From positions 4,290,001-4,322,000 of the forward strand of contig NC_010628.1 in assembly GCF_000020025.1 (NCBI RefSeq): a DNA stretch of 32,000 nucleotides, written 5' to 3'. The stretch is from Nostoc punctiforme PCC 73102. Lineage in GTDB: Bacteria > Cyanobacteriota > Cyanobacteriia > Cyanobacteriales > Nostocaceae. Below are positions 4,354-22,538 of the stretch, piece after piece. Made by a program: the position numbers and the translations under genes. Numbering within the stretch: position 1 is the first letter of the stretch; every line of letters starts with the position of its first letter. The notes beneath the pieces were generated by a model, which worked only from the letters and a program-made list of their open reading frames with translations, did no database searches and had not been told where the DNA came from.

Positions 4354-7300
4354 TTATCTATATTGCGCTCTTGACTGTCTAGAAGCAGTGCGGCTCTCAG
4401 CACGCTCAGTGCTTTCCTCAAAAGAGGATATTTCAGTTGGTTTTTGTATTAAATATTTAGCTAATGAGTTGATGGTTGGATATTCAAATAGGTTAATTAC
4501 TGATATATCTGTGTGCAAAAGTTCTCGTAGTTTGGCGTGAATTTGCACAAGAAGTAATGAATGACCACCAAGATCGAAGAAGTTATCGTAAATGCCCACC
4601 TTTTCAACATGAAGCATCTGTTGCCAGATATTAGCAATAGTTTGCTCTATCTCAGTTTGTGGTGGCTCATAAGTTGCTGCCAATTCTGGGCGATCGCCAT
4701 TTGATTCTGGGAGTTCTCTACGGTTCACTTTGCCATTGGGTGTTAGTGGCAAAGCTTTTAACATAATGAAAGTTGCAGGCATCATGTATTCTGGCAGTTT
4801 CTCCCTCAGAAATCTATACAGTTCGCTAACACTGAGTGTTTGCTGTTGCTTAGGAACAACATAAGCCACCAAGGATTTGTTGCCAAACTCCTCTTCTCGG
4901 ATAGAAGCTACAGCCTGCTGCACTTGCGGGTGTTGACACAGTGTAGTTTCAATTTCTCCTAGTTCAATGCGGAAGCCTCTAATTTTTACTTGGTGATCGA
5001 CTCGTCCAAGAAACTCAATATTACCGTCGGGTAAGTAGCGGGCTAAGTCACCAGTTTTGTATAATCGTGAACCTGGCTTAGAAGCAATCAATCCCGTATC
5101 TGCAAAAGGATTGGGAATAAACTGTGCTGCTGTTAAATCAGATTGATTCAGATAACCCCTAGCTAATCCCGCACCGCCGATGTACAATTCACCCGGTACG
5201 CCAACGGGTACTGGTTGCAGTTGCTCATCCAGTAGATAAATCTGCGTATTGGCAAGTGGACGACCAAGGGGTACTGTCTGTGTATGATTAATTTGCTGCT
5301 CAACTGCGAAGGTAGTAACCCCCACCGTGGCTTCTGTAGGGCCATAGTGATTGAAGATTAAACTAGATGGTACTTGCTGCTGAATCTGTTCAATCAGTTG
5401 CCAATTTGCAGCTTCGCCACCCAGAATTAATTGCTGGCGGGGCAAGATGGAATCGGATGGTGCAGCAGCCAGAAGAGTGGCAAGGTGAGAAGGGACAATT
5501 TTCAGACAGTCGATAGGATGTGTGCGGCAGTATTTTGCCAAGGCTGCTGAGTCAGTAGCACACTCGGCAGACAACACATGCAGACATCCACCAGTGCAAA
5601 GCGCAGCAAAGATGCCAGTATTACCTAAGTCTGCGGCTAAGGTAGAAACAGTGGCAAAATTGGTTGTGGTTGATAAGTCTAACCTCTGGGTAATTCCGTT
5701 AAGGTAATTTAGAAGTTGTTGGTGTTCAATCGCTACTCCTTTTGGTTTACCAGTAGAGCCGGAGGTGAATAAAACATAAGCTAAATTCTCAGTCGTAACT
5801 TCACTGCTGAGATTTTCATCTTTGTGTTGAGCAATGGTATCCCAATCTGTGTCTAAGCAGACTATCTGTGCTGTATGCGTTGGTAGGGCATTTACTAATC
5901 GCTGTTGTGTCAAGATTACTGGTATTTGGGTATTCTGCAATCGGCCAGCAATTCCATCTTTGGTTAAAGTTGGATCTAGCGGTAAATAGGCTCCACCAGC
6001 TTTGAGGATGCCCAAAAGTCCAATAATCATCAATAGCGATCGCTCTGTGCAAAGCCCTACTAAAACTTCCGGCTTGACTCCTTGCTGCTGTAAATAGTCG
6101 GCAAGTTGATTGGCTTTGCTATTCAACTGTGCATAGGTTAATTGCTGGTTTTCAAAGACAACGGCAATTTTATTCGGTGTTTTTTGTACTTGTGCTTCAA
6201 ATAGTTGATGAATGCATTTATGTTGTATATTGTCAAGATATGTTTGGTTAAATTCGACTAACAATTGTTGGCGATCGCTTGGACTGAGAATCTCTAATTG
6301 GCTAATTTTCTCTTCTGGATGAGCAGTTACACTAGTTAATAAAGTTTGAAATTGTCTGGCTATGCGTTCAATAGCATCGGCTGAGAAATAATTGATATCG
6401 TAGTAAAATTCTGTAGTTAAATAATGCTGGCGTTGATTACAACTAAGTTTGATTTTAAACTGTTCAATACAACTGTAATATTGCTCCAGAGAAAATGATA
6501 CATCGCCAGCAACGAGTTCTTCTGGTAGCTGTTCAAACTCGAAACCGATGGGAAAAGCCAGTTGATGATTTTCTATTGGTTCTGGCACAAAATAATCTTG
6601 CCATTCTGCACTAGCTTCTATAGTCCGATCGGCTAGTTCTACAACTTCTTTAAAACGTAAATCTGATGTCAAATAAGTTTTAATTGGCAACCAAGTAGCA
6701 ACAAGTCCTAGTAAGTTATGTAGTTCTTCATAATCGCGGCGATCGCTAGCCATACCGATGATGATATCTGGCTGTCTTGTAAGTCGCCAAATCAGCGTTT
6801 GCCAGCAAGCTAGTAAAACGACAGCAACGGAAGTATTATACTTTTGAGCTAAAGTGGCAATCTCGACTTTTATGTTAGAGGTAATATCTAAGCGATAACA
6901 GTCTACTTCAAACTTAGATGGCTGTAATAGTTTGTTCTCAAAAGGTAACTTTAAAGAGGCAAGTGTCGAAATCTTTTGCTCATCCCAGTATTTCTTAGCT
7001 GATTCTGCATCTTCATCTTCGAGTAATTGATTCTGCCATTCAGAAAATTGTATATATTGTACAACTTCTTCTGATACTGTTTTTTCTTGGAAACAAACAG
7101 AATAGGAATTGCTGATTTCAGTTACCAAATTTTTTAGTGCCCATGCATCAGCACAAAGTGAAGGCAGACTGATAAGTAAAATGTACTTATTTACTGATAG
7201 CCTCAGTAGAGATACATGCAACAGTGATCCTTGCTCAAAATCGAGAGAAAGACTTCGTGCTTCTTGGAAAAAATATTCTATTTGCCTTGAGAGTTCTTTT

Positions 7301-7581
7301 GGTTCGCAATCACTCAGATCAATGTCACGCCACGATAGAATATTCCTGTTTCCTAAAACCATCACAGGAATTTTCATTCCAGGTAGGTAGTGAAAAGTTG
7401 TATGCAGAATCCCATGTCGAATAACGACTTGCTCTAAAGCAGCTTTTAATGCTTCTGGTTTGATATTACCTTCAATAAGAAGGGCACATTGAGTAAAGTA
7501 AGCTAAACTATGCTGCTGTAATGACCAAAGACGCTTTTGTTGAGGAGAAAGCCGAAAACCCTGAGTTATTTTATTTGGCAT
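4354..7581 (-). CDS. NRPS: non-catalytic C-like (interface-like) domain - A (Asp-type code) - T
   Basis: ORF track, 1075 aa. The N-terminal ~430 aa have C-superfamily architecture, but the HHxxxDG position reads SLPSLCAD. A-domain cores: FTSGSTGKPKG, NHYGPTE, YKTGDL, KIRGFRIELGEIE, PNGKVNR. T domain: FFDLGGHSLL (Ser1008). Confidence 0.95.
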   Translation of the reverse strand: MPNKITQGFRLSPQQKRLWSLQQHSLAYFTQCALLIEGNIKPEALKAALEQVVIRHGILHTTFHYLPGMKIPVMVLGNRNILSWRDIDLSDCEPKELSRQIEYFFQEARSLSLDFEQGSLLHVSLLRLSVNKYILLISLPSLCADAWALKNLVTEISNSYSVCFQEKTVSEEVVQYIQFSEWQNQLLEDEDAESAKKYWDEQKISTLASLKLPFENKLLQPSKFEVDCYRLDITSNIKVEIATLAQKYNTSVAVVLLACWQTLIWRLTRQPDIIIGMASDRRDYEELHNLLGLVATWLPIKTYLTSDLRFKEVVELADRTIEASAEWQDYFVPEPIENHQLAFPIGFEFEQLPEELVAGDVSFSLEQYYSCIEQFKIKLSCNQRQHYLTTEFYYDINYFSADAIERIARQFQTLLTSVTAHPEEKISQLEILSPSDRQQLLVEFNQTYLDNIQHKCIHQLFEAQVQKTPNKIAVVFENQQLTYAQLNSKANQLADYLQQQGVKPEVLVGLCTERSLLMIIGLLGILKAGGAYLPLDPTLTKDGIAGRLQNTQIPVILTQQRLVNALPTHTAQIVCLDTDWDTIAQHKDENLSSEVTTENLAYVLFTSGSTGKPKGVAIEHQQLLNYLNGITQRLDLSTTTNFATVSTLAADLGNTGIFAALCTGGCLHVLSAECATDSAALAKYCRTHPIDCLKIVPSHLATLLAAAPSDSILPRQQLILGGEAANWQLIEQIQQQVPSSLIFNHYGPTEATVGVTTFAVEQQINHTQTVPLGRPLANTQIYLLDEQLQPVPVGVPGELYIGGAGLARGYLNQSDLTAAQFIPNPFADTGLIASKPGSRLYKTGDLARYLPDGNIEFLGRVDHQVKIRGFRIELGEIETTLCQHPQVQQAVASIREEEFGNKSLVAYVVPKQQQTLSVSELYRFLREKLPEYMMPATFIMLKALPLTPNGKVNRRELPESNGDRPELAATYEPPQTEIEQTIANIWQQMLHVEKVGIYDNFFDLGGHSLLLVQIHAKLRELLHTDISVINLFEYPTINSLAKYLIQKPTEISSFEESTERAESRTASRQSRAQYR
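4717..6219 (-). other. Adenylation domain, hand-extracted specificity code DLTKIGHVGK (Asp-like)
   Basis: Aligned by eye to GrsA-PheA positions 235/236/239/278/299/301/322/330/331/517: D651 L652 T655 K694 I719 G721 H745 V753 G754 K951. The published Asp code is DLTKVGHIGK. Confidence 0.7.
6277..7563 (-). other. C-like domain lacking the catalytic His motif (interface-like domain), approximate borders
   Basis: aa ~7-435 of ORF 4354..7581. It starts GFRLSPQQKRLW. The HHxxxDG position is ISLPSLCADAW (aa 137-147, nt ~7141-7173). Paralog of 15737..17029. Confidence 0.7.
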
Positions 7582-8348: not shown

Positions 8349-8363
8349 AATGTTTATCCTCAA

Positions 8364-11300
8364 TTATATTTCTTTAATCATTTCGCCCATTGCTACAACA
8401 ATTTTCCGAGAACCTACATAAGGATTCCGTCCGTGAGCAATTAGCATATTATCTAACATCAAAATATCACCTTGCTGCCAAGAAAAGCTCGTTTGACATT
8501 GCTGATAAACTTCATTAATTTCTGCAATAACTGAATCTTCTATAGGAGTACCATCTCCGTAATAAACATTACGCGGTAGCTGTTTATCTCCAAATGTAGA
8601 CAATAGAGATTCTCTAACTTCTGCGTCTAAATATGCTATATGGTGTAACTGAATTTGATTGAAAAATACAGACTCGCTAGTTTTTGGATGTACTGCCAAT
8701 GCTGGACGAACTTGGCGAGTAATTAGACTATTATTATACCATTCAAAATTAATTCTAGCTTGACGGCAATAATTTTCTACAACTAATTTGTCATTGCTAC
8801 GAAAGAAATTTTGCCAGCTTACATCCAGACCTTTGGTATAGTGACGGACGTACATTAATTGTTTTTGAGCTAATCTTTCTCTCAGTTTGGGATTGATTAT
8901 TTTGTAAGCTTTTCGACAGTCTATAATTGGTGTTTCTCCACCTTGTTGTGCTACTTGGATGCAGAAAAACCAAATTTTCAGAGGCCACTGATGTAAATGA
9001 GAACTTTCGTTATGAAAGAGAATAGCTTTTTTAGGCGGGTAAGGAGTAGAACCATAAACTTTACCACCCTCTCCAGTCCGGGGTAAATCACCATATTCAT
9101 CAAATAAGTCTGGAGAAATTACCTGGGCAAAATTTTCAAAATCTAATACTGATTCTATATTGAAGTCTCTAAACAAAATTGCGCCATGTTTTAACAATTC
9201 CTTGTCTAAAAATTCCTGATTCATTTTAGACCAAGCAATCAAATCAATATCGTTACTAGCAGGCTTAATTACTAGGGGAAATGTTTGTCCTGTTTGAAAG
9301 TAACAAGTTTCGACTAATTTTTCTGGCAACGAGCTAATAGCTTTAGGAGTAATGCCGATTAACTTCTCCTGATTAAATGCTTTACGCTCTCTTTTTTGCC
9401 TAACTTGTTGGTTTCTTTCAGCCTCAGTCAACATTTCTAAATTGCCAATCTGCACATCAGGTTGAGACACAATGCTGTTAAGCAGTGTCTGGAAGTGATT
9501 TGTCATCCGAGTGATGGTAGCAGCATCAAAAAGTTCGGCGTTATACTGCAACTTGCCCAAAATTCCCTGTTCTGTTTCTGTTAAAAATAGTGCTAAATCA
9601 AACCTAGCTATTTTGTTTTGAATTTCCAAGAAACTTAAGGTCAATCCTGGCAATTCTAAGGTTGGCATTGGGGCATTCTGAAGGACAAACAATACCTGAA
9701 ATAGTGGCGATGTATTACTCAAATTGCGCTCAGGTTGCAAAACCTCTACTAATTTCTCGAAGGGCAAATCTTGATGAGCATAAGCTCCTAATGCTACCTC
9801 GCGGACTCGCCCAAGTAACTCACGAAAACTGGGGTTTCCGCTCAAATCGGTGCGTAAGACCAGCAAATTGACAAAAAAGCCAATTAATGATTCGATTTCG
9901 GCTCGATTACGATTAGCAACATCAGTGCCAACAATGATGTCATCCTGCTGGGTATAAAGTTGTAGTAATATTTGAAACCCTGCCAGTAGGGTCATGAATA
10001 AAGTAGCACCCTCTTGGCGGGTAAGTGCTTGCAGTTGTTGAGATAGGTTAGAGGGAATGTTGAAGAATTGAGTTGCACAAGGACTAGTTTTAACTTCTGC
10101 CCGTGGGCGAACTGTAGGTAATTGCAGTATAGGAAGGTTGCTTCCTAATTGCTTTTTCCAGTAGCTAAGTTGAGCTTCTAGTACCTCCCCCTGCAACCAC
10201 TGTTTTTGCCAGATTGCAAAGTCTGCATACTGTATGGGTAGTTCTGAAAGCGGAGAAGGTTTTCCGGCACAAAATACCTCGTACAATGTTGCTAATTCTT
10301 GAACAAACACACCCATTGACCAGCCATCTGAGACAATATGATGGATTGTGAACAATACTATATGTTCTTGCTCGTGGATACGCAGGAGAGTACATCTTAG
10401 TAATGGCCCTTGCACTAGGTCAAAACACCGTTGCGATTCTTCTGTAATCAGTTGTTGAACAACAGCTTCCTTCTGTGCTTCTGGTAACTCCCGTAAGTCC
10501 ACTACTGGTATTTTGATAGTTAGACTGCAAGCGATCGCTTGAAATGGTTGTCCATTTACCATATAGAAGGTAGTACGCAACGCTTCATGACGACGGATTA
10601 TTTCCTGCAAACTCTGCTCCAGCACACCTAAATTTAGGGAACCAACGAGACGTAAACCAGATAGATCGTTGTAGGTTAAGCTGCCAGGATATAGTTGCTC
10701 TAGCAACCACAATCTAGCTTGAGCAAAAGATAGTGGTAAATTGCCATTTCGGGAAATGCGTGTGATGGCAGGAGTTTCTAGCTTTTGTTCCAGTCTCATC
10801 ACAATTTCAATCTGTTTAGCTAGGCTAGCGATAGTAGGTGATTCAAATAAGTGACGCAGGGGTAGTTCAAGGCAGAAAGCATCGCGCACGCGAGACATAA
10901 CTTGAGTGGCAAGTAAGGAATGTCCACCCAGTTCAAAAAAGTTGTCGTCAACTCCCACTTGCTCAACACCAAGAATTTGCTTCCAGATTCCGGCTAGGAC
11001 TTCCTCAACAGGATTACGCGGTGCCACAAAGACATGACCAAAATTGTCTGGCTCATGTTTTGGAAGCAACCGGATTTTCGGGATTTGATTGGCTGGAATT
11101 TTATCTAAAAGTGTTGCGATGTGTTGTTCTTCTGGAGCGGCAACTATGTTTTCAAGTAAGCCGATCAAATGGTCTTGAATGCAAGTAACGTCGGCTCTAT
11201 CGAAGCGACGTGTATCGTAGATCAGATCAAATCTGAGTTCTGAGTCTGGAACTACGAGCAACGTCAGGGCATATTTAGTTTGTGCCCCTTTAAAATGAGT

Positions 11301-12434
11301 CTGACTGATATTGATACTTAGAACTGATGATTGCTGTCTTGATATATCTGGAAAGTTCTCGAAAACTAGAAGACTTTCATAAAGAGACAAGGCTCCCGGA
11401 ACTTCACTCCATTGATGGATTTGACCAGTAGGGCTATATTCATACTGCTGAAGCTCTACATTATAGGTCTGGATGTCTTTGAGCCAAAACCAGAAAGATG
11501 CTCTAGGGGAAACCTTTACCCGTATGGGTAAGCTATTGATCAACATTCCAGTCATTGATTCAACCCCCTCTAAGTCTGACTGACGACCAGAGACGGTAAT
11601 GCCAAAAACGACATCTTCTTGCCGACTATAATGGCTCAAAAGCAATGCCCAAACTCCCTGAATAACCGTATTCAAAGTTAAGCGATATTGCTTTGCCAAA
11701 GATTGCAAGGTAGCTGTAGCAGGTGCTGATAAGTAAACTTTCTGTTCTCCGTAAATGTCTTCTGGGTCAGCGACACTTAGCGACTCTACTGTTGTTCCCA
11801 GTGGGGTTGGTCTGGTAAAACCCTGTAGAGTTTTGCGCCAGAATGCTTCTGGTTTGGACAAATCTTGTTTTTTCAGCCAAGCGATATAGTCTCTGTAGGG
11901 ACGAGGTTTTTCTAAATGTAGGTCTTGACCTTGACAGAACGCTTCGTAAAAGGCAAAGAATTCTTGGAAGATCGAAGAGACAGACCATCCATCCATCAAA
12001 ATATGGTGATGAGTGCAAATAAATTGATAATTTTCTTTACCCAAATGGATCAGAGCTAGGCGAATCAACGGTGCTTTGGAAAGGTTTATACCCTGATGAC
12101 GTTCTGCCTGAAGAAAAGCCTCTAGTTCTTCTTTGACTTGAGATGATGAAAACTGATGCCAGTCTAGTTGTTCAAGCGGTACTTTCACCTGTCGAAGTAC
12201 TACCTGAAGTGGCTCATCTTGTTCTTTCCAGATGAAACATGTTCTCAAGACTGAGTGGCGGTCTATAACCTGCTGCCATGCTCGCTCAAAGGCAGAAATA
12301 TCTAAATTTCCCTGAAAAACACCAGTCAATTGCTCAATATGGATGCCTGGCTCTGGAGAATACAGCGTCTCAAACAGCATACCTTGCTGTGGAGCCGAAA
12401 GGGGATAAATTGCTTCAATATTTTTCTTGTTCAT
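8364..12434 (-). CDS. NRPS with no adenylation domain: C - T - C - TauD/TfdA-type Fe(II)/2OG dioxygenase domain
   Basis: ORF track, 1356 aa. C1: IYPLSAPQQGMLFE, HHHILMDGWS (aa 142-151). T: FFELGGHSLLATQV (Ser506). C2: LSFAQARLWLL, HHIVSDGWS (aa 698-706). TauD: ILFRDF, FHNES (H1141/E1143), GGETPIID, AHGRNPY (H1334). No AMP-binding core motifs appear anywhere in the protein. Confidence 0.95.
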   Translation of the reverse strand: MNKKNIEAIYPLSAPQQGMLFETLYSPEPGIHIEQLTGVFQGNLDISAFERAWQQVIDRHSVLRTCFIWKEQDEPLQVVLRQVKVPLEQLDWHQFSSSQVKEELEAFLQAERHQGINLSKAPLIRLALIHLGKENYQFICTHHHILMDGWSVSSIFQEFFAFYEAFCQGQDLHLEKPRPYRDYIAWLKKQDLSKPEAFWRKTLQGFTRPTPLGTTVESLSVADPEDIYGEQKVYLSAPATATLQSLAKQYRLTLNTVIQGVWALLLSHYSRQEDVVFGITVSGRQSDLEGVESMTGMLINSLPIRVKVSPRASFWFWLKDIQTYNVELQQYEYSPTGQIHQWSEVPGALSLYESLLVFENFPDISRQQSSVLSINISQTHFKGAQTKYALTLLVVPDSELRFDLIYDTRRFDRADVTCIQDHLIGLLENIVAAPEEQHIATLLDKIPANQIPKIRLLPKHEPDNFGHVFVAPRNPVEEVLAGIWKQILGVEQVGVDDNFFELGGHSLLATQVMSRVRDAFCLELPLRHLFESPTIASLAKQIEIVMRLEQKLETPAITRISRNGNLPLSFAQARLWLLEQLYPGSLTYNDLSGLRLVGSLNLGVLEQSLQEIIRRHEALRTTFYMVNGQPFQAIACSLTIKIPVVDLRELPEAQKEAVVQQLITEESQRCFDLVQGPLLRCTLLRIHEQEHIVLFTIHHIVSDGWSMGVFVQELATLYEVFCAGKPSPLSELPIQYADFAIWQKQWLQGEVLEAQLSYWKKQLGSNLPILQLPTVRPRAEVKTSPCATQFFNIPSNLSQQLQALTRQEGATLFMTLLAGFQILLQLYTQQDDIIVGTDVANRNRAEIESLIGFFVNLLVLRTDLSGNPSFRELLGRVREVALGAYAHQDLPFEKLVEVLQPERNLSNTSPLFQVLFVLQNAPMPTLELPGLTLSFLEIQNKIARFDLALFLTETEQGILGKLQYNAELFDAATITRMTNHFQTLLNSIVSQPDVQIGNLEMLTEAERNQQVRQKRERKAFNQEKLIGITPKAISSLPEKLVETCYFQTGQTFPLVIKPASNDIDLIAWSKMNQEFLDKELLKHGAILFRDFNIESVLDFENFAQVISPDLFDEYGDLPRTGEGGKVYGSTPYPPKKAILFHNESSHLHQWPLKIWFFCIQVAQQGGETPIIDCRKAYKIINPKLRERLAQKQLMYVRHYTKGLDVSWQNFFRSNDKLVVENYCRQARINFEWYNNSLITRQVRPALAVHPKTSESVFFNQIQLHHIAYLDAEVRESLLSTFGDKQLPRNVYYGDGTPIEDSVIAEINEVYQQCQTSFSWQQGDILMLDNMLIAHGRNPYVGSRKIVVAMGEMIKEI
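8367..9317 (-). other. TauD-family dioxygenase domain fused to the NRPS C-terminus (approximate borders)
   Basis: aa ~1040-1356 of ORF 8364..12434. It aligns end to end with the free-standing TauD at 17085..18131. Shared blocks include GAILFR, KVY, QQGGETPI, LPRN.YYGDG..IEDSV, LLDN and VAMGEM. Confidence 0.85.
9435..10742 (-). other. Condensation domain C2 (LCL-like), paralog of the free-standing C protein at 18155..19741
   Basis: aa ~565-1000. Both C domains share HHIVSDGWS, ELPIQYADFAIWQKQWL, DVANRNR and GNPSFRELLGRVR. Confidence 0.85.
10800..11027 (-). other. Thiolation (PCP) domain with no cognate cis A domain
   Basis: aa ~470-545: PRNPVEEVLAGIWKQILGVEQVGVDDNFFELGGHSLLATQVMSRV. It lies only ~30 aa after the end of C1. 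Confidence 0.85.
11115..12416 (-). other. Condensation domain C1, probably DCL-type (it follows an E-domain protein)
   Basis: aa ~7-440. The N-terminus MNKKNIEAIYPLSAPQQGMLFE resembles the YxLTPMQEGMLFH starts of Bacillus C domains that follow E domains. HHHILMDGWS is intact. Confidence 0.7.
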
Positions 12435-12445
12435 TTTATCCTCAC

Positions 12446-15400
12446 TTAAGAAAAGTCTATTTCAGCAAAAGCCTTTTCTAATTTTTCTTGGCTTAGTTCA
12501 ACATCAGGAAAGTCAGAAGGAGTATAGCCAAATGCATCAGGAGACTGACTACGGACAATAAGAGCCCGCAGCACTTCTACACAACCTTGAGCTAAACCCT
12601 CAATTGTGGCCCGTTGATAAATGTTTTTGCTGTATATCCAATCTATTTGCAGCCGACCACCCATAACAAAGCCAATACACTCCAGCAAATGGCTCATGCT
12701 TCCTCGTGGACTGCGGTTTAGTCCGGGTATCAAGTGGGATAATCGAAACTCAGAATTTTCAGGGATAATTCGATCTAACTGACCCAAGTAGTTGAAAATA
12801 ACTTGAGCTTGAGGAAGGGCTTGTAGTTGCTCAACTATTTCTACATCCTCGCTCATATAGCGCAGTACGCCATAGCCAATGCCCTGGTTGGGAATTTTGC
12901 GAAGCTGTTCCTTGACTGATTTTAAGGTATTTTCTGGATAGATTTCCTCACCCAGTTCTAAGACAACTGGGAAGATGGTTGTGAACCAACCTACGGTGAG
13001 CGATAGATCCATATCGTCGAATATATCTTCTCGCCCGTGACCCTCTAAGTCAATTAATAGCGATCGCGAAGCGTCTCCTGTGGAGATTCGCTCTCCATTC
13101 CATTGTGCCAAAGTTTGTGCAACTGCTGTTATTAACAGGTCATTGATTTGGGTTAGATAAACCTGAGGAAGTTCTTGGAGCAATGCTTTAGTTTCTTCTG
13201 CACTGAGTTTGACTGATACAGTTTCGGCAGAAGCCATCAGGTTGTCCCCTCGCTCATTATCCATTGGCAGAGAAGAAATATATTTCCGCGATTCTGAGAG
13301 CCAATAAGGTAATTCTTGCTTTAGTTCTGCTGACTGCGCGTATTGCTCTAGTCGTTGCGACCACCGTTGAAACGAAGTAGTTTTTAGTGGAAGCTTAATT
13401 GCTTCACCCTGAGAAAGCTGTTGACAAAGTGTATATAGAGCGTCCAACAAAATTCGCCAAGAGACACCATCAACTACCAAGTGGTGCATAACAACCAACA
13501 TTCGGGCTGACTTTTGCACACCCAGTTCAAAAAAGGCCACCTTCAAAAGCGGCCCAGAGGATAGGTTCAGGCTCGCCTGTACTGTTTCTGTTGCTTCTTC
13601 AATGGCAGATTCTTGTTTTTCTGATGACAGCGCCGACAAATCCAGTCTGATAAAAGATAAAACTTCGTCTGGGCTAGCGTTGAACTGTTGCCAACCAGAT
13701 TCCGTCTGCATAAAACGCAGGCGGAGCGCATCATGGTGTATAAGCAATTGCTGTAGCGCCTGCTCTACGATTGATGGGTCGAGTTCTTGATTCACTTCCA
13801 GTTGGATTGACTGGTTCCAGTGGTGCGAATCAGGCTGATTTTGTGCTAGAAACCACGATTGGATGGGTGTCAGGGGTAATGAACCAACGATCGCTTCCTG
13901 TTGCGCTTGGATTGTGGGAGTGTTTCCCGCCACTGCGGCTAATTCAGCAATCGTTTGGCGATCGAAAATTTGACTGGTAGTTAGCTGTATACCAGTCTGC
14001 TTGGCTTTGGCGATCGCCTGAATGCTGAGAATAGAATCTCCGCCTAAGTCGAAGAAGTTGTCGTAAACGCCCACTCGATCGACACCAAGTACCTGACTCC
14101 AGATTTGGGCTAATATTTCCTCAACAGCAGTGCGCGGTGCAGCGTAAGTTGCTTCCAGTTCGGGTCTGGTTGTGTCTGGTGCTGGCAGTGCGCGTCGATC
14201 TACTTTGCCATTAGAAGTTAATGGTAGTGCCTTCAGGGATATCAAGGCTGAGGGCATCATGTATTCAGGTAGCTTCTGTTTGAGGAAACTTCGCAGATCG
14301 CTAAGGGAGGGTGACTCATGGTTCCAAACAATGTATGCCACTAAACGCTGGTTGCCTGGAACATCCTGCCGCGCTATCACTACTGTTTCTTGTACTCCCG
14401 AATACTCAGAGAGTACAGACTCAATTTCCCCTAGCTCAATGCGGAAGCCTCGAATCTTCACCTGGTCATCGCAACGTCCCAGGAACTCTAGCGTTCCATC
14501 TGGTCGGTAACGAACTAGGTCGCCAGTTTTATAAAGACGTTCCCCAGGTTCATTAGTGAAAGGGTTGGGGACAAATTTTTCTGCGGTCAGTTCAGGGCGA
14601 TTTAGATAGCCTCGGGCTACTCCCAAACCGCCAATGTATAGTTCACCCACCATCCCAATGGGGACTAACTGACAGTGCGGGTTAAGTACATACAGCTTGG
14701 TATTGGCAATTGGCTGACCAATTGGCACCGACCCTGATAGCTGTTCGCTACTTGGAACTTTATAAATGCAGCATCCCACAACTGTTTCTGTGGGGCCATA
14801 CTCATTGACAAGCATGGTGTCAGGAGCAGCCTTTTGCCAAAAGCTAATGCTGTTAACTAATAAATTTTCACCCCCAATAATGAAAGCCCTAGTTCGTCCA
14901 CTAGCTTCTTTTGGTGATATTTGCTGGTTGAGCAATTCCAGATGAACAGGTGTAATTTTAACCAGGCTTAAGTTGGAGTGGTGAAGTAGCGAGTTGCTTA
15001 GGGTTTCGATGCCCTGATCTTCCGGCAACAAGTCTACCCGACACCCTACCAGTAAGGGTGAAAACAGACTAGTTATTGTCAGGTCAAATGCTAAAGAAGA
15101 GTGAACTAGCGTCCCGTCTCCTTGCTCGACTGCGTAAGCTTGCGTACACCAGTTCAGATAATTTACCAAACCTTGATGGGGAATTAACGTCCCTTTGGGT
15201 TTACCAGTGGAGCCGGAGGTGTAGATGACGTAAGCTAGATTGAGAGCAGTTGTCTGACTGACTGGGTTTTCTGGACATTCGTTAGCGATAACTTCCCAGT
15301 CGGTATCTAGGCAAATGACTTTGATTCCCTCTGTTGGAATTTCGGCTACTAAACTTTGTTGGGTAAGCAGCACAAGAGCCTGAGTATCCCCAAGAATGAA

Positions 15401-17041
15401 GGCTTGGCGTTCCTTGGGATAGATGGGATCGATGGGAACATAAGCTCCACCTGCTTTGAGGATACCTAAGACTCCGATGACCATTTCTAGAGACCTCTCT
15501 ACGCAAATGCCCACTAGCACTTCGGAACCAACTCCCAGTTTTTGTAAGTAGTGAGCTAGCTGATTGGCGCGAGCATTGAGTTCGGCGTAGGTTAGTTGCT
15601 GGGTTTGAAATCTGACAGCGATGTTTTCGGGTGTGCGATCGCTCTGTAACTCAAACCAATGGTGGATGCACTGGTAGGGTAAAATAGTGGTTTGACTATT
15701 GTTAAATTCGGCTAAAAGTTGCTGACGCTCGATAGGACTGATAATGTCGAAAGTAGCGATCGCACCTCCGGGATTTTTAACCACACTGGTTAACAATGTC
15801 TCAAATTGATTCGCCAGACGCTGAATGTCTTCTAAAGCCAAAACATTCGCATCGTAGTGAAATTCAGCAGCTATACTATCATTCCGACTAACACAGGTTA
15901 GTTTGACCTGAAACTTATCAACACAAGTGTACTGTTGATAAATTGAAAAGTAGACATCGCCAGCAAAATGTTTAGCCGAGAGAGATTCAAAATCGAAACA
16001 GAATGGGAAGAATAACTGCTCTAGACTATTACCCGATTCAACACTTTTTTCCCAAGAAAAACTTTCTTGCCATTCAGATATTTCCTTTATAGTTTCTGCA
16101 ACCTGAACCAAGAGATTGTTGAACTTGTAGCTATCTTCGAGATGACACCGAAGAGGTAAATATTTAACAATTAGTCCCAACGATTCTTGTAATTCTTCAT
16201 AGCTGCGACCATCATTAACTGTACCAATAACTATGTCTGATTGTTCGGTGAGCCGCCATAGCAGAATTTGCCAGCAAGTTATAAAAAATACATCTTTATT
16301 AATTTTTTTACCGTGAGTAATGGCATTTATTTTTGCTACTAAATCAGGCGCAATTTCCCTACTAAACCATTTGGGTTCAAATTTTGAGTTCTCAGTTTGC
16401 TGATTTGCAAAAGGAAGCCGCAAGCCACTAAGACTAGAAATATCTAGCTTTCCCCAGTAATCTGTTTCTAATTCCACATCTCCTGCTTTCAGCAATTCAT
16501 TTTGCCATTCAGCAATCTCGGCATATTGTAAAGGTTGCTCAATAACTGTTTCGCCCCGTAAGCAAGCCGCGTAGCATTTGCTCAGTTCACAAACTAAATT
16601 ATTCAGGGTAGGTGAATCCGCACACAAAGCAGGCAAACTGACAAGTAATAAATGCTTTTTTGGTGAGAGAGTAGTGAAGGTTGTTTGCAAAAGTGGCCCT
16701 TTCTCCCAATCGAAACTTTGCTGAATTCCTGATTGAAACAGCTTCTCTATCTCTAATCCTAAAGCCTCTTTGTTTTCCCAAGAATATTCACTTAATGATA
16801 GGAGGGTAGGCTCATTAATTACCTGAATGGGAATTTTTATCCCACGGGTCTGATGAAAAGTCGTCCGGAGAATTTCATACCGATTTACTACTTGGTGTAA
16901 AGCTGCTTTTAAAATCTCCAGTTGCAAATTCCCTTCCAGGAGGATAGCACCATATACTTGATAATATTGACTGTCTTTTTGTAATAACCACAATCGCTTT
17001 TGTTGCGGTGAAAGTTGAAATCCGTGAATTTGTTTTTGCAT
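12446..17041 (-). CDS. NRPS: non-catalytic C-like (interface-like) domain - A (Asn/Asp-type code) - T - E
   Basis: ORF track, 1531 aa. The N-terminal C-like domain has VSLPALCADSP where HHxxxDG is expected. A cores: YTSGSTGKPKG, NEYGPTE, YKTGDL, KIRGFRIELGEIE, SNGKVDR. T: FFDLGGDSILSIQ (Ser1003, the GGDSI form typical upstream of E domains). E: LPLTPIQSWF, HHLVVDGVSWRIL (aa 1186-1198). Confidence 0.95.
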   Translation of the reverse strand: MQKQIHGFQLSPQQKRLWLLQKDSQYYQVYGAILLEGNLQLEILKAALHQVVNRYEILRTTFHQTRGIKIPIQVINEPTLLSLSEYSWENKEALGLEIEKLFQSGIQQSFDWEKGPLLQTTFTTLSPKKHLLLVSLPALCADSPTLNNLVCELSKCYAACLRGETVIEQPLQYAEIAEWQNELLKAGDVELETDYWGKLDISSLSGLRLPFANQQTENSKFEPKWFSREIAPDLVAKINAITHGKKINKDVFFITCWQILLWRLTEQSDIVIGTVNDGRSYEELQESLGLIVKYLPLRCHLEDSYKFNNLLVQVAETIKEISEWQESFSWEKSVESGNSLEQLFFPFCFDFESLSAKHFAGDVYFSIYQQYTCVDKFQVKLTCVSRNDSIAAEFHYDANVLALEDIQRLANQFETLLTSVVKNPGGAIATFDIISPIERQQLLAEFNNSQTTILPYQCIHHWFELQSDRTPENIAVRFQTQQLTYAELNARANQLAHYLQKLGVGSEVLVGICVERSLEMVIGVLGILKAGGAYVPIDPIYPKERQAFILGDTQALVLLTQQSLVAEIPTEGIKVICLDTDWEVIANECPENPVSQTTALNLAYVIYTSGSTGKPKGTLIPHQGLVNYLNWCTQAYAVEQGDGTLVHSSLAFDLTITSLFSPLLVGCRVDLLPEDQGIETLSNSLLHHSNLSLVKITPVHLELLNQQISPKEASGRTRAFIIGGENLLVNSISFWQKAAPDTMLVNEYGPTETVVGCCIYKVPSSEQLSGSVPIGQPIANTKLYVLNPHCQLVPIGMVGELYIGGLGVARGYLNRPELTAEKFVPNPFTNEPGERLYKTGDLVRYRPDGTLEFLGRCDDQVKIRGFRIELGEIESVLSEYSGVQETVVIARQDVPGNQRLVAYIVWNHESPSLSDLRSFLKQKLPEYMMPSALISLKALPLTSNGKVDRRALPAPDTTRPELEATYAAPRTAVEEILAQIWSQVLGVDRVGVYDNFFDLGGDSILSIQAIAKAKQTGIQLTTSQIFDRQTIAELAAVAGNTPTIQAQQEAIVGSLPLTPIQSWFLAQNQPDSHHWNQSIQLEVNQELDPSIVEQALQQLLIHHDALRLRFMQTESGWQQFNASPDEVLSFIRLDLSALSSEKQESAIEEATETVQASLNLSSGPLLKVAFFELGVQKSARMLVVMHHLVVDGVSWRILLDALYTLCQQLSQGEAIKLPLKTTSFQRWSQRLEQYAQSAELKQELPYWLSESRKYISSLPMDNERGDNLMASAETVSVKLSAEETKALLQELPQVYLTQINDLLITAVAQTLAQWNGERISTGDASRSLLIDLEGHGREDIFDDMDLSLTVGWFTTIFPVVLELGEEIYPENTLKSVKEQLRKIPNQGIGYGVLRYMSEDVEIVEQLQALPQAQVIFNYLGQLDRIIPENSEFRLSHLIPGLNRSPRGSMSHLLECIGFVMGGRLQIDWIYSKNIYQRATIEGLAQGCVEVLRALIVRSQSPDAFGYTPSDFPDVELSQEKLEKAFAEIDFS
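12542..13888 (-). other. Epimerization domain (approximate borders)
   Basis: aa ~1052-1500: PLTPIQSWF, HHLVVDGVSW, EGHGRE, FNYLGQ. The C-terminal tail TPSDFPDVELSQEKLEKAFAEIDFS looks like a COM-type donor helix. Confidence 0.85.
14177..15679 (-). other. Adenylation domain, hand-extracted specificity code DLTKIGEVGK (Asn/Asp hybrid)
   Basis: D653 L654 T657 K695 I721 G723 E747 V755 G756 K946, aligned by eye to GrsA-PheA. L236 is typical of Asp codes (DLTKVGHIGK). E322/V330 are typical of Asn codes (DATKVGEVGK). Confidence 0.65.
15737..17029 (-). other. C-like domain lacking the catalytic His motif (interface-like domain), approximate borders
   Basis: aa ~5-435 of ORF 12446..17041. It starts GFQLSPQQKRLW. 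The HHxxxDG position is SLPALCAD (aa 135-142, nt 16616-16639). Confidence 0.7.
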
Positions 17042-17084: not shown

Positions 17085-18131
17085 TTAGACATCTTCAAAG
17101 TTGGCCATTTCGCCCATTGCAACTAAGAGTTGCCTTTCTCCCATATATGAATTCCTACTATGAGCAGTTAATAGATTATCTAGTAGTAATAAATCTCCCC
17201 TTTTCCAAGGAAAGCTAACTTCTAATTGCTGATAGACTCCACAAATTTCTTCCAGTACCGAATCTTCAATAAGAGAGCCATCTCCGTAATAGCAATTTCG
17301 TGGTAAATCCTCTTGTTTAAACATTGATAAAAGGGACTCACGAGTTTGTGAATCTAAACAAGCTGGATGCCAATGTTGCGCTTGATTAAACCAAGACATT
17401 TCCTTAGTTTGAGGATGTTTGACAACTGCTGGACGAACAGCAATTGTCCTCAGTCGATTGCCTGTTTTCCATTCAAAATCAATTGCCGCTTTTGTACATG
17501 CAGCTTCTACTTCTAAGCGATCGCTAGTCTGAAAAACTGTTTCCCAATTCAATCCTAATCTATCCCCGTAGTTTCGGATATACATAACTTTCTTATCAAT
17601 AAATCGCTCTCTAATTTTAGGATCGATTAGCTGAAAAACTATCCGACTATCAACTATTGGTGTTTCTCCTCCCTGCTGTGCAGGCTGAAGACAACCAAAC
17701 AATATTTTTCTTGGCCAAGAATAATTAAATGAATTTTCGTTATGCCACAAGAGCTTTTTATCAGCAGGGTAAGATACTGGAGTATAAACTTTACCACTAA
17801 CACTTTTCCGGGGATGTTCCCCATTCTCATTAAACAAGTCTGAGCAAAGAGCCAAGCAAACTCGCTCAAATGTTGTTGCGGTGTCTACATTGAATCCTCG
17901 GAATAATATCGCACCATATTTTAGTAATTTTGTTTCTATAAAATTTTGGCTGCTCTCAATCCAATCGGCTAAATCAAGATAGTCAATATTAGGTTTTAGG
18001 ACGATCGGAAGTGTTTCCCAATGGGTGAGAAAATCTATCTTGATAAATTCTGTTTCTGACAAGTTAATTGTCTTTCGTCGCACTGTCTCTAATTTTATAG
18101 AGCTAGATTTTTTATTTTCTAATTTTTTCAT
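17085..18131 (-). CDS. Free-standing TauD/TfdA-family Fe(II)/2OG dioxygenase, putative T-domain-dependent Asx beta-hydroxylase
   Basis: ORF track, 348 aa. Motifs: AILFRGF, WHNENS (H130/E132), QQGGETPIVD, TAHSRNSY (H324). Roughly half of positions are identical by eye to the TauD domain at 8367..9317. It sits directly upstream of the Asx NRPS. Confidence 0.9.
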   Translation of the reverse strand: MKKLENKKSSSIKLETVRRKTINLSETEFIKIDFLTHWETLPIVLKPNIDYLDLADWIESSQNFIETKLLKYGAILFRGFNVDTATTFERVCLALCSDLFNENGEHPRKSVSGKVYTPVSYPADKKLLWHNENSFNYSWPRKILFGCLQPAQQGGETPIVDSRIVFQLIDPKIRERFIDKKVMYIRNYGDRLGLNWETVFQTSDRLEVEAACTKAAIDFEWKTGNRLRTIAVRPAVVKHPQTKEMSWFNQAQHWHPACLDSQTRESLLSMFKQEDLPRNCYYGDGSLIEDSVLEEICGVYQQLEVSFPWKRGDLLLLDNLLTAHSRNSYMGERQLLVAMGEMANFEDV

Positions 18132-18154: not shown

Positions 18155-19741
18155 TTATAAATTTTCACTAATGACCTTCCTTTGAACATTTTTTAATTTT
18201 TGGTAAAACACCTCTTTTTGTTTTATTTTATGGAGCATCTGCTGTTGCTTATCTGTTTTCTTTAAAATTTCTTCTAGTTGATTGAGTTCAGCATCCGGTT
18301 GTGTAACAACACTCGCTAAAATTATTTCAAAATGCTTCAGCATCCGGGTAATACTACTAGCATCAAATAGGTCTGTGTCGTACTCCAATAATCCTTTCAA
18401 TCCTTGCTCTGTCTCTCTTAGTTCTAAGTACAAATCAAGTTTGGTTTCCCCTGTTTCTACCTCATCCAAAATATTTACCGTTAAACCCGAAATATCCAAA
18501 GGTGGTAATGGAGCATTCTGGAGAACAAGTTTGACTTGAAACAGTGGCATACGGCTTCGGGTTCGCTCCAGTTTCAGGGCGTTCAGAAGTTTCTCAAACG
18601 GTAAATCCTGATGGGAATAGGCTGACAAAGTACAATCGCGTACTCGTCCAAGCAACTCTCGAAAGGTAGGATTTCCTGAGAGGTTTGTCCGCAATACCAG
18701 TTGATTTACAAAGAACCCGATTAGCCCTTCAACCTCTGGTCGATTGCGGTTGGCGACATCAGTACCTACAACTATGTCGTCTTGGTCTGTGTACCAGTGC
18801 AACAAAGTCTTAAAGGCTGCTAACAGTAGCATAAACAGCGTTATCCCTTCTTGCTGGCTCAGGACTTTTAGCTCTTGGGATAAAGCCTTTGGTAACATTA
18901 GAGTTTGTCTAGCCCCTCGGAAGGCTTGAACTGTAGGTCGAGGGCGGTCGGTAGGCAACTGCAATGTCGGAAGATTATGCAACTGCTGTTTCCAGTAAGC
19001 GACTTGAGTCTCTAATACTTCTCCCGCCAGCCACTGCCTCTGCCAAATAGCAAAGTCTGCGTACTGAATCGGGAGTTCAGGCAGGGTAGAGGGCTTACCA
19101 ATACTGAAAGCCTCGTAAAGCGCTACCAATTCACGAACGAGTACGCCCCATGTCCAACCGTCGGTGATAATGTGGTGCATAGTGATTTGCAGCAAATACT
19201 CTGTCTCACTCAGATGCAGTAAGATGCTCCGCAGCAATGGGCCCTGTTCTAAGTCAAAAAGCTGTTGGACTTCCTGAGTAGTGCGTCGCTGAACCTCTTG
19301 CTCACGCTCAACTTCCGGTAACTTTCTGAGGTCTACTCTCGGCAGAGTTATAGTCAAGGCTGGGGCAATGATTTGAACCGATTCTCCCTCTGCGATCGCA
19401 AAGGTGGTGCGTAGAGCTTCGTGACGGCGTACTATTTCATTTAAGCTCTGCTCCAGCACTGCTAGGTCGAGTGAACCGGTTATGTGTATAGATGCAACTT
19501 GATTATAGGCAGCGCTGTTTGGCTCCAATTGGTAGAGAAACCACATCCGCTGTTGAGCAAAGGATAGAGGTGCCGATCCGCGCTGGGAACGTCGAGGAAT
19601 AAGTTGTAATTGAGTATTAGATTCAAATCCGCATAACCGCTTTTTCAGCAGCGTTTGCTTGACAACGGAAAGCTGAGAACGTCGCCGGGAAATTTCATCT
19701 TTTTTCTGCTCAAAGCTTATACTATCGTTGCGAAAAGTCAT
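18155..19741 (-). CDS. Free-standing NRPS condensation-domain protein with a ~50-aa N-terminal docking-like extension
   Basis: ORF track, 528 aa. Motifs: LSFAQQRMWFLYQLEP, MHHIITDGWTWGVL, ELPIQYADFAIWQRQWL, DVANRNR. No A or T motifs are present. Confidence 0.9.
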   Translation of the reverse strand: MTFRNDSISFEQKKDEISRRRSQLSVVKQTLLKKRLCGFESNTQLQLIPRRSQRGSAPLSFAQQRMWFLYQLEPNSAAYNQVASIHITGSLDLAVLEQSLNEIVRRHEALRTTFAIAEGESVQIIAPALTITLPRVDLRKLPEVEREQEVQRRTTQEVQQLFDLEQGPLLRSILLHLSETEYLLQITMHHIITDGWTWGVLVRELVALYEAFSIGKPSTLPELPIQYADFAIWQRQWLAGEVLETQVAYWKQQLHNLPTLQLPTDRPRPTVQAFRGARQTLMLPKALSQELKVLSQQEGITLFMLLLAAFKTLLHWYTDQDDIVVGTDVANRNRPEVEGLIGFFVNQLVLRTNLSGNPTFRELLGRVRDCTLSAYSHQDLPFEKLLNALKLERTRSRMPLFQVKLVLQNAPLPPLDISGLTVNILDEVETGETKLDLYLELRETEQGLKGLLEYDTDLFDASSITRMLKHFEIILASVVTQPDAELNQLEEILKKTDKQQQMLHKIKQKEVFYQKLKNVQRKVISENL

Positions 19742-19795: not shown

Positions 19796-20866
19796 CTAAT
19801 TCAGAATCTGTAATTTTATATATTTTGGAAAAGGTTGAATCCGCGTTAAATCATTTTCAAAAATTACTAGTTCACCACGCTTTTCAATTTCTTTGAATCC
19901 TGCAAATTTATAAGCTATATACATCATCCGGTTACGATGACTGGAAACAAATTCAGCGCACAGCCGAACGTTATTGTTTTTAGCTAGATTCATAATATGG
20001 TTCAGCATAATTGTGCCGATACCTCTAGACATAACACGACAGGACATCAGCAGAAGTTTTATTGTCCAGATGCTTTCTTGGCACTCTATCAAAACTAACC
20101 CGATTTTACCGTAACTTCCATATTTATCATCTAAACTAGCAATAAACAGTTTGTGGCTTTCTGATTGACGAAAATGATTGAGTTCATCATAAGAATATGT
20201 ATAACCAGTTGTATTCAATTGGTTAGTACGTACTGTTAATTCTTCTGCTCGTTGCAAATCCTCTTCTTTTGCCGAAGAGATGGTAAAACTCATCTTGAGG
20301 GTGGCTAAAAACTCTTCTGGTGTGCCAACAAATTCTTTTTCAGTATTTTGACGCTTTATATCACTAATGTACATTAACCTTCTAATTTTGGAATCTTCTG
20401 TAATAAAACGTGGATTCATTTCTGGCATATCTAGTAGATGCGCCAGTTGAGAGACGTTAATACAGAAAACTTCCGGCAGAGAAAAGTTAACTTCTTCTAG
20501 TTCAAATGGCTGATCGTCAATGAAGGCGATCGCATCTGTTCCAATATTAATTAATTTAGCGATTTCTTGAATAGAAGCAGCTTTGGAATTCCAATTAATT
20601 TGAGGATATAGAAAATATTCTTGCAAACCAAACTCTTGAAGTTTGTTCATGGCAAGAACACAATCGTTTTTACTTGCAACAGATTGTAATATCCCGCGAC
20701 TATCCAAAGTTTTGATGATATTTACGATATCATCTCGCAAGTAAACATGGTTATCCTCTAATAACACACCATGCCATAACGTGTTATCTAAATCCCAAAC
20801 GACACACTTAATAATTTTGTTGTCTTCTTGCTTGTTATTTGAAGATTCAATTTGAGTGCTAATCAT
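19796..20866 (-). CDS. FkbH-like protein (HAD-IIIC phosphatase domain plus C-terminal acyltransferase-like part); glyceryl-ACP loader
   Basis: ORF track, 356 aa. HAD motif I is in KCVVWDLDNTLWHGVL. There is IAFIDDQPFE. The C-terminal part (MSCRVMSRGIGT..) is as in FkbH/ZmaN-type proteins. Confidence 0.85.
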   Translation of the reverse strand: MISTQIESSNNKQEDNKIIKCVVWDLDNTLWHGVLLEDNHVYLRDDIVNIIKTLDSRGILQSVASKNDCVLAMNKLQEFGLQEYFLYPQINWNSKAASIQEIAKLINIGTDAIAFIDDQPFELEEVNFSLPEVFCINVSQLAHLLDMPEMNPRFITEDSKIRRLMYISDIKRQNTEKEFVGTPEEFLATLKMSFTISSAKEEDLQRAEELTVRTNQLNTTGYTYSYDELNHFRQSESHKLFIASLDDKYGSYGKIGLVLIECQESIWTIKLLLMSCRVMSRGIGTIMLNHIMNLAKNNNVRLCAEFVSSHRNRMMYIAYKFAGFKEIEKRGELVIFENDLTRIQPFPKYIKLQILN

Positions 20867-20870
20867 GTGT

Positions 20871-22055: not shown

Positions 22056-22093
22056 CACATCAATGAGGTAGATAAATACCGTCAATTTTTGGT

Positions 22094-22345
22094 TTAGTTG
22101 TAGGTAAGCAAAGCTGTTTTACGTTGTACTAAATTGGTCATAGCATTTATTGTCTTGAAGTTATCAAACTCTAGGTCTTCGTTTTCAATAGTAATTTGAA
22201 ATTCTTGTTCTAAAAATAATACTAGTTGCATAGCAAACATTGAATTAACAAAACCTAGAGTAAATATATCTTCATCTGGCTTCAAGTCATGACCACCAAA
22301 AAATCGGGAAAGGAAGGTTTTAATTCTTGTTGTGGTTTCTTTCAT
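22094..22345 (-). CDS. Discrete acyl carrier protein (FkbJ/ZmaD-like)
   Basis: ORF track, 83 aa. The candidate phosphopantetheine site is Ser35 in TLGFVNSMFAMQLVLFLEQEF. It lies between the dehydrogenase genes of the cassette. Confidence 0.8.
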   Translation of the reverse strand: MKETTTRIKTFLSRFFGGHDLKPDEDIFTLGFVNSMFAMQLVLFLEQEFQITIENEDLEFDNFKTINAMTNLVQRKTALLTYN

Positions 22346-22538
22346 AATTTAACGCTATTTGTGTAATTTTATATTTATCGCAGACCGATATGATTTATCC
22401 AAAATACTTGTTTTAACGAACCATAAATAACAAGAAGGCAATAAAAATAACTGATTTCACAAATGATTGAGGAATGCTATGGTCATCTTCTTATTTATTG
22501 GTATAGCAATCAGATAAAATGAAAAAGAATTTTACAAA

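Follow-up and report, generated by a model that had tools for sequence, protein, structure and literature searches.

An N-terminal condensation-like domain without the HHxxxDG histidines in a Nostoc punctiforme NRPS, read as a likely interface domain of a split β-hydroxylating module

A stretch of 32,000 nucleotides from Nostoc punctiforme PCC 73102 (contig NC_010628.1, positions 4,290,001 to 4,322,000 of the forward strand; hereafter the window) encodes a nonribosomal peptide synthetase (NRPS) of 1531 amino acids, the N-terminal region of which resembles a condensation (C) domain that has lost its catalytic histidines. We think it likely that this region, residues 9-440, is a non-catalytic interface (I) domain. 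It would belong to a split module in which a stand-alone C protein and a stand-alone TauD hydroxylase are followed by an NRPS with the domain order interface, adenylation, thiolation and epimerisation (I-A-T-E).

The interface-like domain and its degenerate motif

The features of the split module are as follows.

12446-17041, minus strand: NRPS with interface-like domain (I-A-T-E), 1531 amino acids (Pfam)
15722..17017, minus strand: interface-like domain, residues 9-440, below called I1 (Pfam Condensation, AlphaFold2 model, I-like clade)
16616..16639, minus strand: SLPALCAD (S135-D142), degenerate counterpart of HHxxxDG (alignment with the C and E domains of the window)
14204..15655, minus strand: adenylation domain, code DLTKIGEVGK, Asp/Asn type (Pfam AMP-binding 463-813 and AMP-binding_C 872-946)
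13934..14116, minus strand: thiolation (PP-binding) domain, presumed carrier of the hydroxylated residue (Pfam PP-binding 976-1036)
12539..13882, minus strand: epimerisation-type domain with HHLVVDG (Pfam Condensation 1054-1501)
17085-18131, minus strand: stand-alone TauD/TfdA Fe(II)/2-oxoglutarate dioxygenase, presumed β-hydroxylase partner (Pfam TauD, 146 bits)
18155-19741, minus strand: stand-alone C domain protein with HHIITDG (Pfam Condensation, 390 bits; LCL-type clade)

Residues 9-440, taken alone, matched the Pfam Condensation profile (PF00668) with 200 bits over nearly its full length (profile positions 6-453 of 456), and the blocks LSPQQKRLW, LRTTFH, YWGKL and LLLVSLPALCADSPT are all present. 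The score is lower than those of the three catalytic C domains (312-390 bits) and the E-like domain (270 bits) of the window. An AlphaFold2 model built from a 28-sequence alignment was confident (predicted local distance difference test 89.6, predicted TM-score 0.90) and showed the usual two-lobed C fold, with a TM-score of 0.83 against the C domain of Txo2. When the domain was aligned by MAFFT with the four window domains that carry both histidines (HH-bearing domains), V-S-L-P-A-L-C-A-D-S was matched with I-T-M-H-H-I-I-T-D-G in the stand-alone C protein. Pro137 thus takes the place of the first histidine, Ala138 that of the catalytic second one and Ser143 that of the glycine, and Asp142 is retained. 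An earlier note on this DNA had described the first ~430 residues as a condensation-type domain in which both histidines and the glycine of HHxxxDG are missing, and had pointed to a separate catalytic C protein and a TauD protein next to it; all of this is borne out by the profile matches and the alignment.

The same replacement was found in homologues. Among the 120 database homologues listed, variants of x-L-[PS]-[AS]-[LIM]-C-A-D were aligned with the motif; none has HH and a few have H at the first position. These sequences came from cyanobacteria, Pyrinomonadaceae, Blastocatellia, Ktedonobacteraceae, Gemmatimonadaceae and others. The genomic context of the family was surveyed by a scan of one genome per species, giving 78 loci and ~100 homologous domains from cyanobacteria, Acidobacteriota, Chloroflexota and Binatia, in which the consensus is x-[PS]-[AS]-L-x-A-D and HH is never present. 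Counted over the window and 80 loci, proline or serine at the first histidine together with no histidine at the second occurs in 102 of 353 C-superfamily domains. Within this clade P137 is conserved in 81% of members, A141 in 95% and D142 in 100%, and HH-bearing domains show H at both histidine positions.

The active-site motif is not the only part of the catalytic apparatus that has gone. R119, S145, N293 and R298, each conserved to at least 80% in the HH-bearing C domains, are exchanged throughout the I-like clade, so that the second histidine, R119, N293 and R298 expected of a catalytic LCL domain are all replaced in the window domain and clade-wide. On this residue loss, residues 9-440 cannot use the canonical histidine base and are read as non-catalytic, as the earlier note had proposed; the absence of the catalytic histidine extends to the whole clade.

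About 40 positions are specific to the I-like clade, including G7-F8, Q13, Q21, N148, E178, N181 and C256-W257, and further on Y281-E282, K293, W324, F328, P346, C373, K380 and C383. The clade-wide exchanges and these clade-specific residues point to a domain selected for another function, not to decay, and the aligned sequences mark the motif replacement as a family trait and not chance drift. A functionless C-domain relic, left behind when a hydroxylase gene entered a C-A-T module, is highly improbable. The lost active site and the Pfam score below those of the catalytic C domains would fit such a relic, but the domain is of full length with a confident fold, its ~40 specific positions are shared over several phyla and ~100 loci, and the two window copies, at 42% identity, both keep the signature.

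Four cysteines, C140, C256, C373 and C383 (nt ~16622, 16274, 15923 and 15893), are specific to the I-like clade and absent in HH-bearing C domains. C256, C373 and C383 are conserved in 86-95% of the clade. Cys140 is lost in a Bradyrhizobium member (TSALRAD; see below), and many clade members have Y, I, S or N in its place.

An active condensation-family enzyme that uses an alternative active site, with Asp142 or Cys140, to carry out condensation, dehydration or some other acyl transfer has also to be considered. The invariance of Asp142 and the clade-specific cysteines speak for it, as do atypical C domains that lack the second histidine and yet have chemistry, for example CmodAA and the C domain of MxgE. 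Against this, R119, S145, N293 and R298 have been lost as well, and Cys140 is not kept in the Bradyrhizobium domain or in many other members. A second condensation would moreover need a spare carrier domain, and none was present in the surveyed architectures, where an HHxxxDG C domain is already there for every A-T pair. We therefore regard an alternative active site as very unlikely.

A neighbour-joining tree of 100 representatives (Kimura-corrected distances, 100 bootstraps) gathered all 39 I-like representatives into a single clade that contains no HH-bearing domain. This clade is not nested in a catalytic C subtype; such nesting is what the earlier note had named as evidence against its reading. 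Instead it is sister to an LCL-type clade with MHHI-x-SDGW, and a DCL-type clade with SHHH-x-L-x-DGW lies next out; its bootstrap support is 88/100 without the Bradyrhizobium member. The LCL-type clade includes the stand-alone C protein of the window and the C domain ahead of the fused TauD domain described below. The next C domain after the E domain, the first C domain of NRPS 8364-12434, falls in the DCL-type clade.

Gene order, hydroxylases and A-domain specificity

The window holds a second degenerate domain, at 6259-7554, which the earlier note did not mention. It is part of a second unit with the order C-TauD, methyltransferase, I-A-T, in which the methyltransferase gene separates the fused TauD domain from the I domain.

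8364-12434, minus strand: NRPS C-T-C-TauD, without an A domain (Pfam)
9408..10745, minus strand: catalytic C domain (HHIVSDG) directly ahead of the fused TauD (Pfam Condensation; LCL-type clade)
8391..9251, minus strand: TauD domain fused C-terminally to NRPS 8364-12434, partner of the second I domain (Pfam TauD 1062-1348)
7587-8363, minus strand: methyltransferase (Pfam layout)
4354-7581, minus strand: NRPS C-like-A-T, that is I-A-T (Pfam)
6259..7554, minus strand: second interface-like domain (I2), N-terminus of NRPS 4354-7581 (Pfam, motif)
7147-7170, minus strand: SLPSLCAD motif of the second copy

The HxE...H iron ligands are intact both in the stand-alone TauD protein 17085-18131 and in the fused TauD domain. 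The fused domain is 60% identical to the hydroxylase of CcsFGH from the cyanochelin B cluster. The stand-alone protein is 52% identical to the fused CcsFGH hydroxylase and 44% identical to the stand-alone CcsK; as it is nearer to the fused enzyme, its probable origin is a C-TauD fusion that came apart. Stereochemical rules that set fused apart from stand-alone hydroxylases may fail to transfer to it. Outside its Pfam domain, the stand-alone C protein 18155-19741 is extended by ~50 residues at the N-terminus and ends in a basic tail of ~30 residues that looks helical. It is possible that the extension and tail are docking elements for the upstream carrier and the downstream TauD and I partners.

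The order seen in the two units of the window recurs in the surveyed loci. For 100 I-like domains the fetched DNA includes the start of the open reading frame, and all 100 begin no later than residue 54 of that frame; of the 84 without truncation, 76 have an A domain next. TauD, as a gene or a domain, ends no more than 450 nt upstream in 64 of 86 cases and no more than 1300 nt upstream in 70 of 86 (~81%); in the 6 cases that make up the difference, TauD is accompanied by a single small gene, mostly for a methyltransferase, as in the second copy in the window. In the 84 cases for which the upstream element was classified, it was a stand-alone TauD after C (41 times), a fused C-TauD (25), a small methyltransferase gene after C or C-TauD (6) or a bare terminal C (11), and the nearest upstream NRPS domain was an HHxxxDG C domain in nearly all. 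The position of the I-like domain, at the N-terminus and behind this C domain, is an invariant part of the gene order.

The A domains that follow also form a narrow set. The Stachelhaus codes are DLTKIGEVGK for the I1 module and DLTKIGHVGK for the I2 module, the latter being the same code as in CcsL and CcsI from the cyanochelin B cluster. The codes of 80 A domains behind I-like domains comprised 46 of DLTK[IV]GH[VI]G, about 20 of DLTK/DATK-x-GEVG, 9 of DSALIAEVW and a few that are Glu/Gln-like. We take the first to be Asp-type, the second Asn/Asp-type and the third His-like; the codes were computed, and the residues were assigned from identity with CcsL/CcsI and general knowledge of Stachelhaus codes. 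The A domains behind HH-bearing C domains of the same loci have mostly DILQLG[LM]IW and DVWH-x-SL-x-D, presumably Gly-type and Ser-type respectively. The A partner of an I domain is thus predicted to activate residues that become β-hydroxylated (Asp/Asn, His). The variant with Glu at code position 322 was found behind 16 of 80 I-like domains and also in the Bradyrhizobium example. No clear relation was seen between TauD adjacency and either the residue at position 322 (His or Glu) or the cysteine of the motif.

A working scheme can be drawn from these observations. The A domain would charge the T domain with Asp (or Asn). The I domain, keeping the C fold and a conserved surface specific to its family and doing no HHxxxDG chemistry, would serve as the N-terminal platform of the A-T protein. 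There it may dock the TauD hydroxylase as well as the trans-encoded C domain, and present the T-bound Asp/Asn for β-hydroxylation either ahead of condensation by the upstream C domain or while it takes place. The peptide bond would be made by the separate HHIITDG protein and the α-carbon inverted by the E domain, and the second C-TauD / I-A-T set would do likewise for a second residue. Physical recruitment of TauD or of C by the I domain of the window is what we infer from sequence and gene order.

Proteobacterial interface domains and the role of the clade

The interface domain of siderophore NRPSs is reportedly due to Reitz et al. 2019 (PNAS 116:19805), whose I domains are said to be tied to fused hydroxylases. 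Passages in papers citing that work treat I domains as a non-catalytic C-like class tied to siderophore β-hydroxylases. Profiles for interface domains are included in antiSMASH 8 (PMC12230676), and NRPS Motif Finder has a subtype 'I (interface)', for bacteria only (PMC10212144). Both the class itself and its link with TauD, as well as its occurrence in cyanochelin-type clusters, are already published and part of annotation tools; the window domain probably belongs to this described family and adds no new principle to it.

The earlier note had invoked the interface-domain concept. Its application to the window holds as far as the separate clade and the placement among C, TauD and A-T are concerned, and the link to the proteobacterial I domains of Reitz runs through a single example. 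This lies on Bradyrhizobium japonicum plasmid pUSDA123-1, where one NRPS ends in C-TauD and the next starts with IEGFRLS...RHEIFRTSF...TSALRAD. The domain scored 113 bits with the I profile, 54 with the DCL and 36 with the LCL profile; for all other proteobacterial C domains tested the I profile gave the lowest score. Searched by tblastn against 72,556 plasmids, it returned the query itself, a Nostoc I-like domain as the best non-self match and a Bacillus NRPS only. A database search for proteobacterial I domains seeded with the Bradyrhizobium domain gave no matches. This single, uncharacterised example supports one family joining the cyanobacterial-type clade and the proteobacterial I domains, as judged by sequence comparison.

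Three other candidates were set aside. Janthinobacterium TauD is of the stand-alone type and is followed by an ordinary HH-bearing C domain, and Tistrella MobD is a published stand-alone hydroxylase of the same TauD type; neither was of use as an I-domain reference. PDB entry 8Z0Q, entitled "Special condensation domain in NRPS", was considered as a candidate I structure, but it is HtmB2-CT and scores below ordinary LCL domains; the TauD protein of the window had no match to it. The PDB searches yielded no structure that can clearly be called an I domain.

Published experiments on I domains disagree. For glidomide, the I domain is reported to be indispensable for hydroxylation by GlmF. In the myxoglucamide pathway, the N-terminus of MxgB is a C-like domain without the motif, just after a fused dioxygenase, and clusters with I domains; there the pathway could do without the I domain, and it was the catalytic C domain that completed hydroxylation (PMC13638107).

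The myxoglucamide result is one of several points that weigh against reading the window domain as an interface domain for a hydroxylase. About one sixth of the I-like domains (14-16 of 86) have no TauD within ~10 kb upstream and stand behind a bare terminal C domain, so that recruitment of a hydroxylase cannot be the sole conserved role of the clade. The I1 code has Glu in place of the His of CcsL/CcsI at position 322, and its substrate could therefore be Asn. The proteobacterial example joins the clade with a bootstrap of only 35/100, and its pairwise identity with the window domain is only 21%.

Loci without TauD include L003, L023, L024, L026, L030, L051, L069 and L073, in which a terminal or stand-alone HHxxxDG C domain lies directly ahead of the I-like domain. 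These members retain the motif and mostly have Asp/Asn-type A domains. One of them, L051:2-3923, comes from Nostoc sp. isolate P12650 bin 7. Its FkbH-like gene shares 95% identity with that of the window and is followed by a stand-alone C protein of 529 amino acids and then directly by I-A-T (LPALLAD, only 48% identical), with no TauD between. This layout suggests mosaic evolution of the cluster, a hydroxylase gene having been gained or lost.

The members behind a bare C domain are the reason for considering that the domain is a pseudo-C platform which docks the trans C domain where a module is divided between C and A, replacing the usual C:A platform, with TauD as a frequent passenger. An HHxxxDG C domain is the nearest upstream NRPS domain almost throughout and the I-like domain is always N-terminal; the members without an adjacent TauD keep the motif and Asp/Asn-type A domains; and in myxoglucamide biosynthesis it was the C domain and not the I domain that hydroxylation needed. 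On the other hand, TauD adjacency in ~81% of cases and the near-exclusive Asp/Asn/His/Glu/Gln-type A domains are hard to explain in this way, the I domain is reportedly needed for GlmF hydroxylation, and the TauD-less loci could encode a hydroxylase elsewhere. Docking of C as the chief function is improbable but deserves real weight.

Also unlikely is the proposal that the conserved job of the clade is that of an obligatory adaptor of C/A-split modules for which TauD is optional; the cyanobacterial-type clade, marked by LPALCAD and the four specific cysteines, could then be functionally distinct from, or even convergent with, the proteobacterial I domains. It is raised by the sixth of the members that follow a bare C domain without TauD, together with the one published I domain that was dispensable for hydroxylation. 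An interface domain of a hydroxylating split module is still the reading that we prefer for residues 9-440.

The cluster and its comparison with known systems

Every large open reading frame of the window lies on the minus strand. The remaining ones, with polyketide synthase (PKS) genes, ketosynthase (KS), acyltransferase (AT) and acyl carrier protein (ACP) domains, were assigned from the Pfam layout.

1414-4320, minus strand: KS-AT PKS
19796-20866, minus strand: HAD protein, read as FkbH-like
20871-22085, minus strand: acyl-CoA dehydrogenase
22094-22345, minus strand: ACP-like open reading frame, 83 amino acids
22539-23405, minus strand: 3-hydroxyacyl-CoA dehydrogenase
24187-27444, minus strand: KS-AT-ACP PKS
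27434-28927, minus strand: class-III aminotransferase
29044-29790, minus strand: methyltransferase
30005-30898, minus strand: distant TauD
30943-31896, minus strand: glycosyltransferase-like protein

The window shows what is expected of a cyanochelin-type cluster, namely a hybrid PKS/NRPS system with two Asp modules, each with a TauD hydroxylase and one with an E domain. No transporter genes were found inside the 32 kb. Given the two C/TauD/I-A-T sets, the product is most likely, by analogy, a cyanochelin-like lipopeptide with two β-hydroxy-Asp/Asn ligands. A related unit on a plasmid of Nostoc sp. NIES-3756 (PKS / C / TauD / I-A-T) has fetB and a Fur-family regulator nearby, which fits a siderophore role for this type of cluster.

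The FkbH-like HAD, acyl-CoA dehydrogenase, 83-residue ACP-like and 3-hydroxyacyl-CoA dehydrogenase genes form a cassette at 19796-23405 (minus strand), which corresponds to the known gene set for hydroxymalonyl-/methoxymalonyl-ACP extender units. The same cassette accompanies the C, TauD and I unit at seven of the surveyed loci (L005, L007, L015, L027, L032, L033 and L038). In NRPS 8364-12434, the first C domain (7-437) is joined to the T domain (479-541) by a linker of ~40 residues with no A domain between. This A-less C-T-C(-TauD) layout also occurs at L003, L018, L023, L024, L031, L035, L051, L053 and L057, and the T domain in the window could be loaded by a trans A domain or by the FkbH-like enzyme. 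The third TauD-family protein, at 30005-30898 (minus strand), is only 22-26% identical to the cyanochelin hydroxylases; it adjoins the glycosyltransferase-like gene and a methyltransferase and has no I-like domain beside it.

Correct annotation of I1 and I2 is of practical use since it avoids counting extra condensation steps, and with them phantom residues in the predicted product. I domains together with TauD genes flag the two β-hydroxy-Asp/Asn positions, which are the photoreactive iron ligands of cyanochelin-type siderophores. What keeps the domain of interest is the conflict among published experiments on how I domains work, the lack of a clear I structure from the PDB searches and the subset without TauD; the comparative set of ~100 domains, with its clade-specific residues and hydroxylase-less members, could guide experiments.

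The window domain resembles the I domains of Reitz in belonging to the C superfamily, in lacking the catalytic histidine, in forming the N-terminus of an I-A-T protein after C-(TauD), in the Asp/His-type A domain that follows and in having a clade of its own. It differs in that I1 has a stand-alone hydroxylase gene and a stand-alone C protein rather than fused ones, and the motif reads LPALCAD in the window and TSALRAD in the sole proteobacterial example examined.

A second relative with a degenerate C fold is the X domain of glycopeptide NRPSs, which according to Haslinger et al. 2015 reportedly recruits trans-acting oxygenases (P450s) to the carrier-bound substrate. The I-domain model gave TM-scores of 0.76-0.80 against X-domain structures (PDB 4TX2 and 4TX3). 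The X domain differs in that it lies at the C-terminal end of the last module, works with P450s and not TauD, falls in another clade and has a profile score below that of LCL domains. The closest solved structures and sequence relatives are in fact LCL C domains (Txo1/Txo2 C1, PDB 6OYF and 6P1J; profile score 224 bits, TM-score 0.83 as given above). These have HHxxxDG, R119, N293 and R298 and catalyse peptide-bond formation, whereas none of these residues is found in the I clade.

The nearest systems as a whole are those for cyanochelins. Across 100% of its length, NRPS 12446-17041 shares 45.5% identity with CcsL (BAU16061), which is encoded in the cyanochelin B cluster on plasmid 2 of Leptolyngbya sp. 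NIES-3755 (AP017310.1; PMC12628792). CcsL shares the I-A-T-E order and has the stand-alone TauD CcsK upstream; its motif is LPSLCAD and that of CcsI is LPALCAD. CcsI has no E domain and lies behind the hydroxylase-fused CcsFGH (PMC12628792), an arrangement mirrored by the second module of the window with its fused TauD and its I-A-T without E. The two β-hydroxy modules are in opposite order in the window, which also has, in addition to the cyanochelin B set, the FkbH/acyl-CoA dehydrogenase/ACP/3-hydroxyacyl-CoA dehydrogenase cassette, the A-less C-T module, methyltransferases, an aminotransferase and a glycosyltransferase. In the cyanochelin C cluster (ccsH1/2-ccsH2/2-ccsI), ccsH is divided over two genes, one for C and one for TauD, before ccsI (bioRxiv 10.64898/2026.07.24.740629), and C, TauD and I-A-T are thus separate there just as they are in the window.

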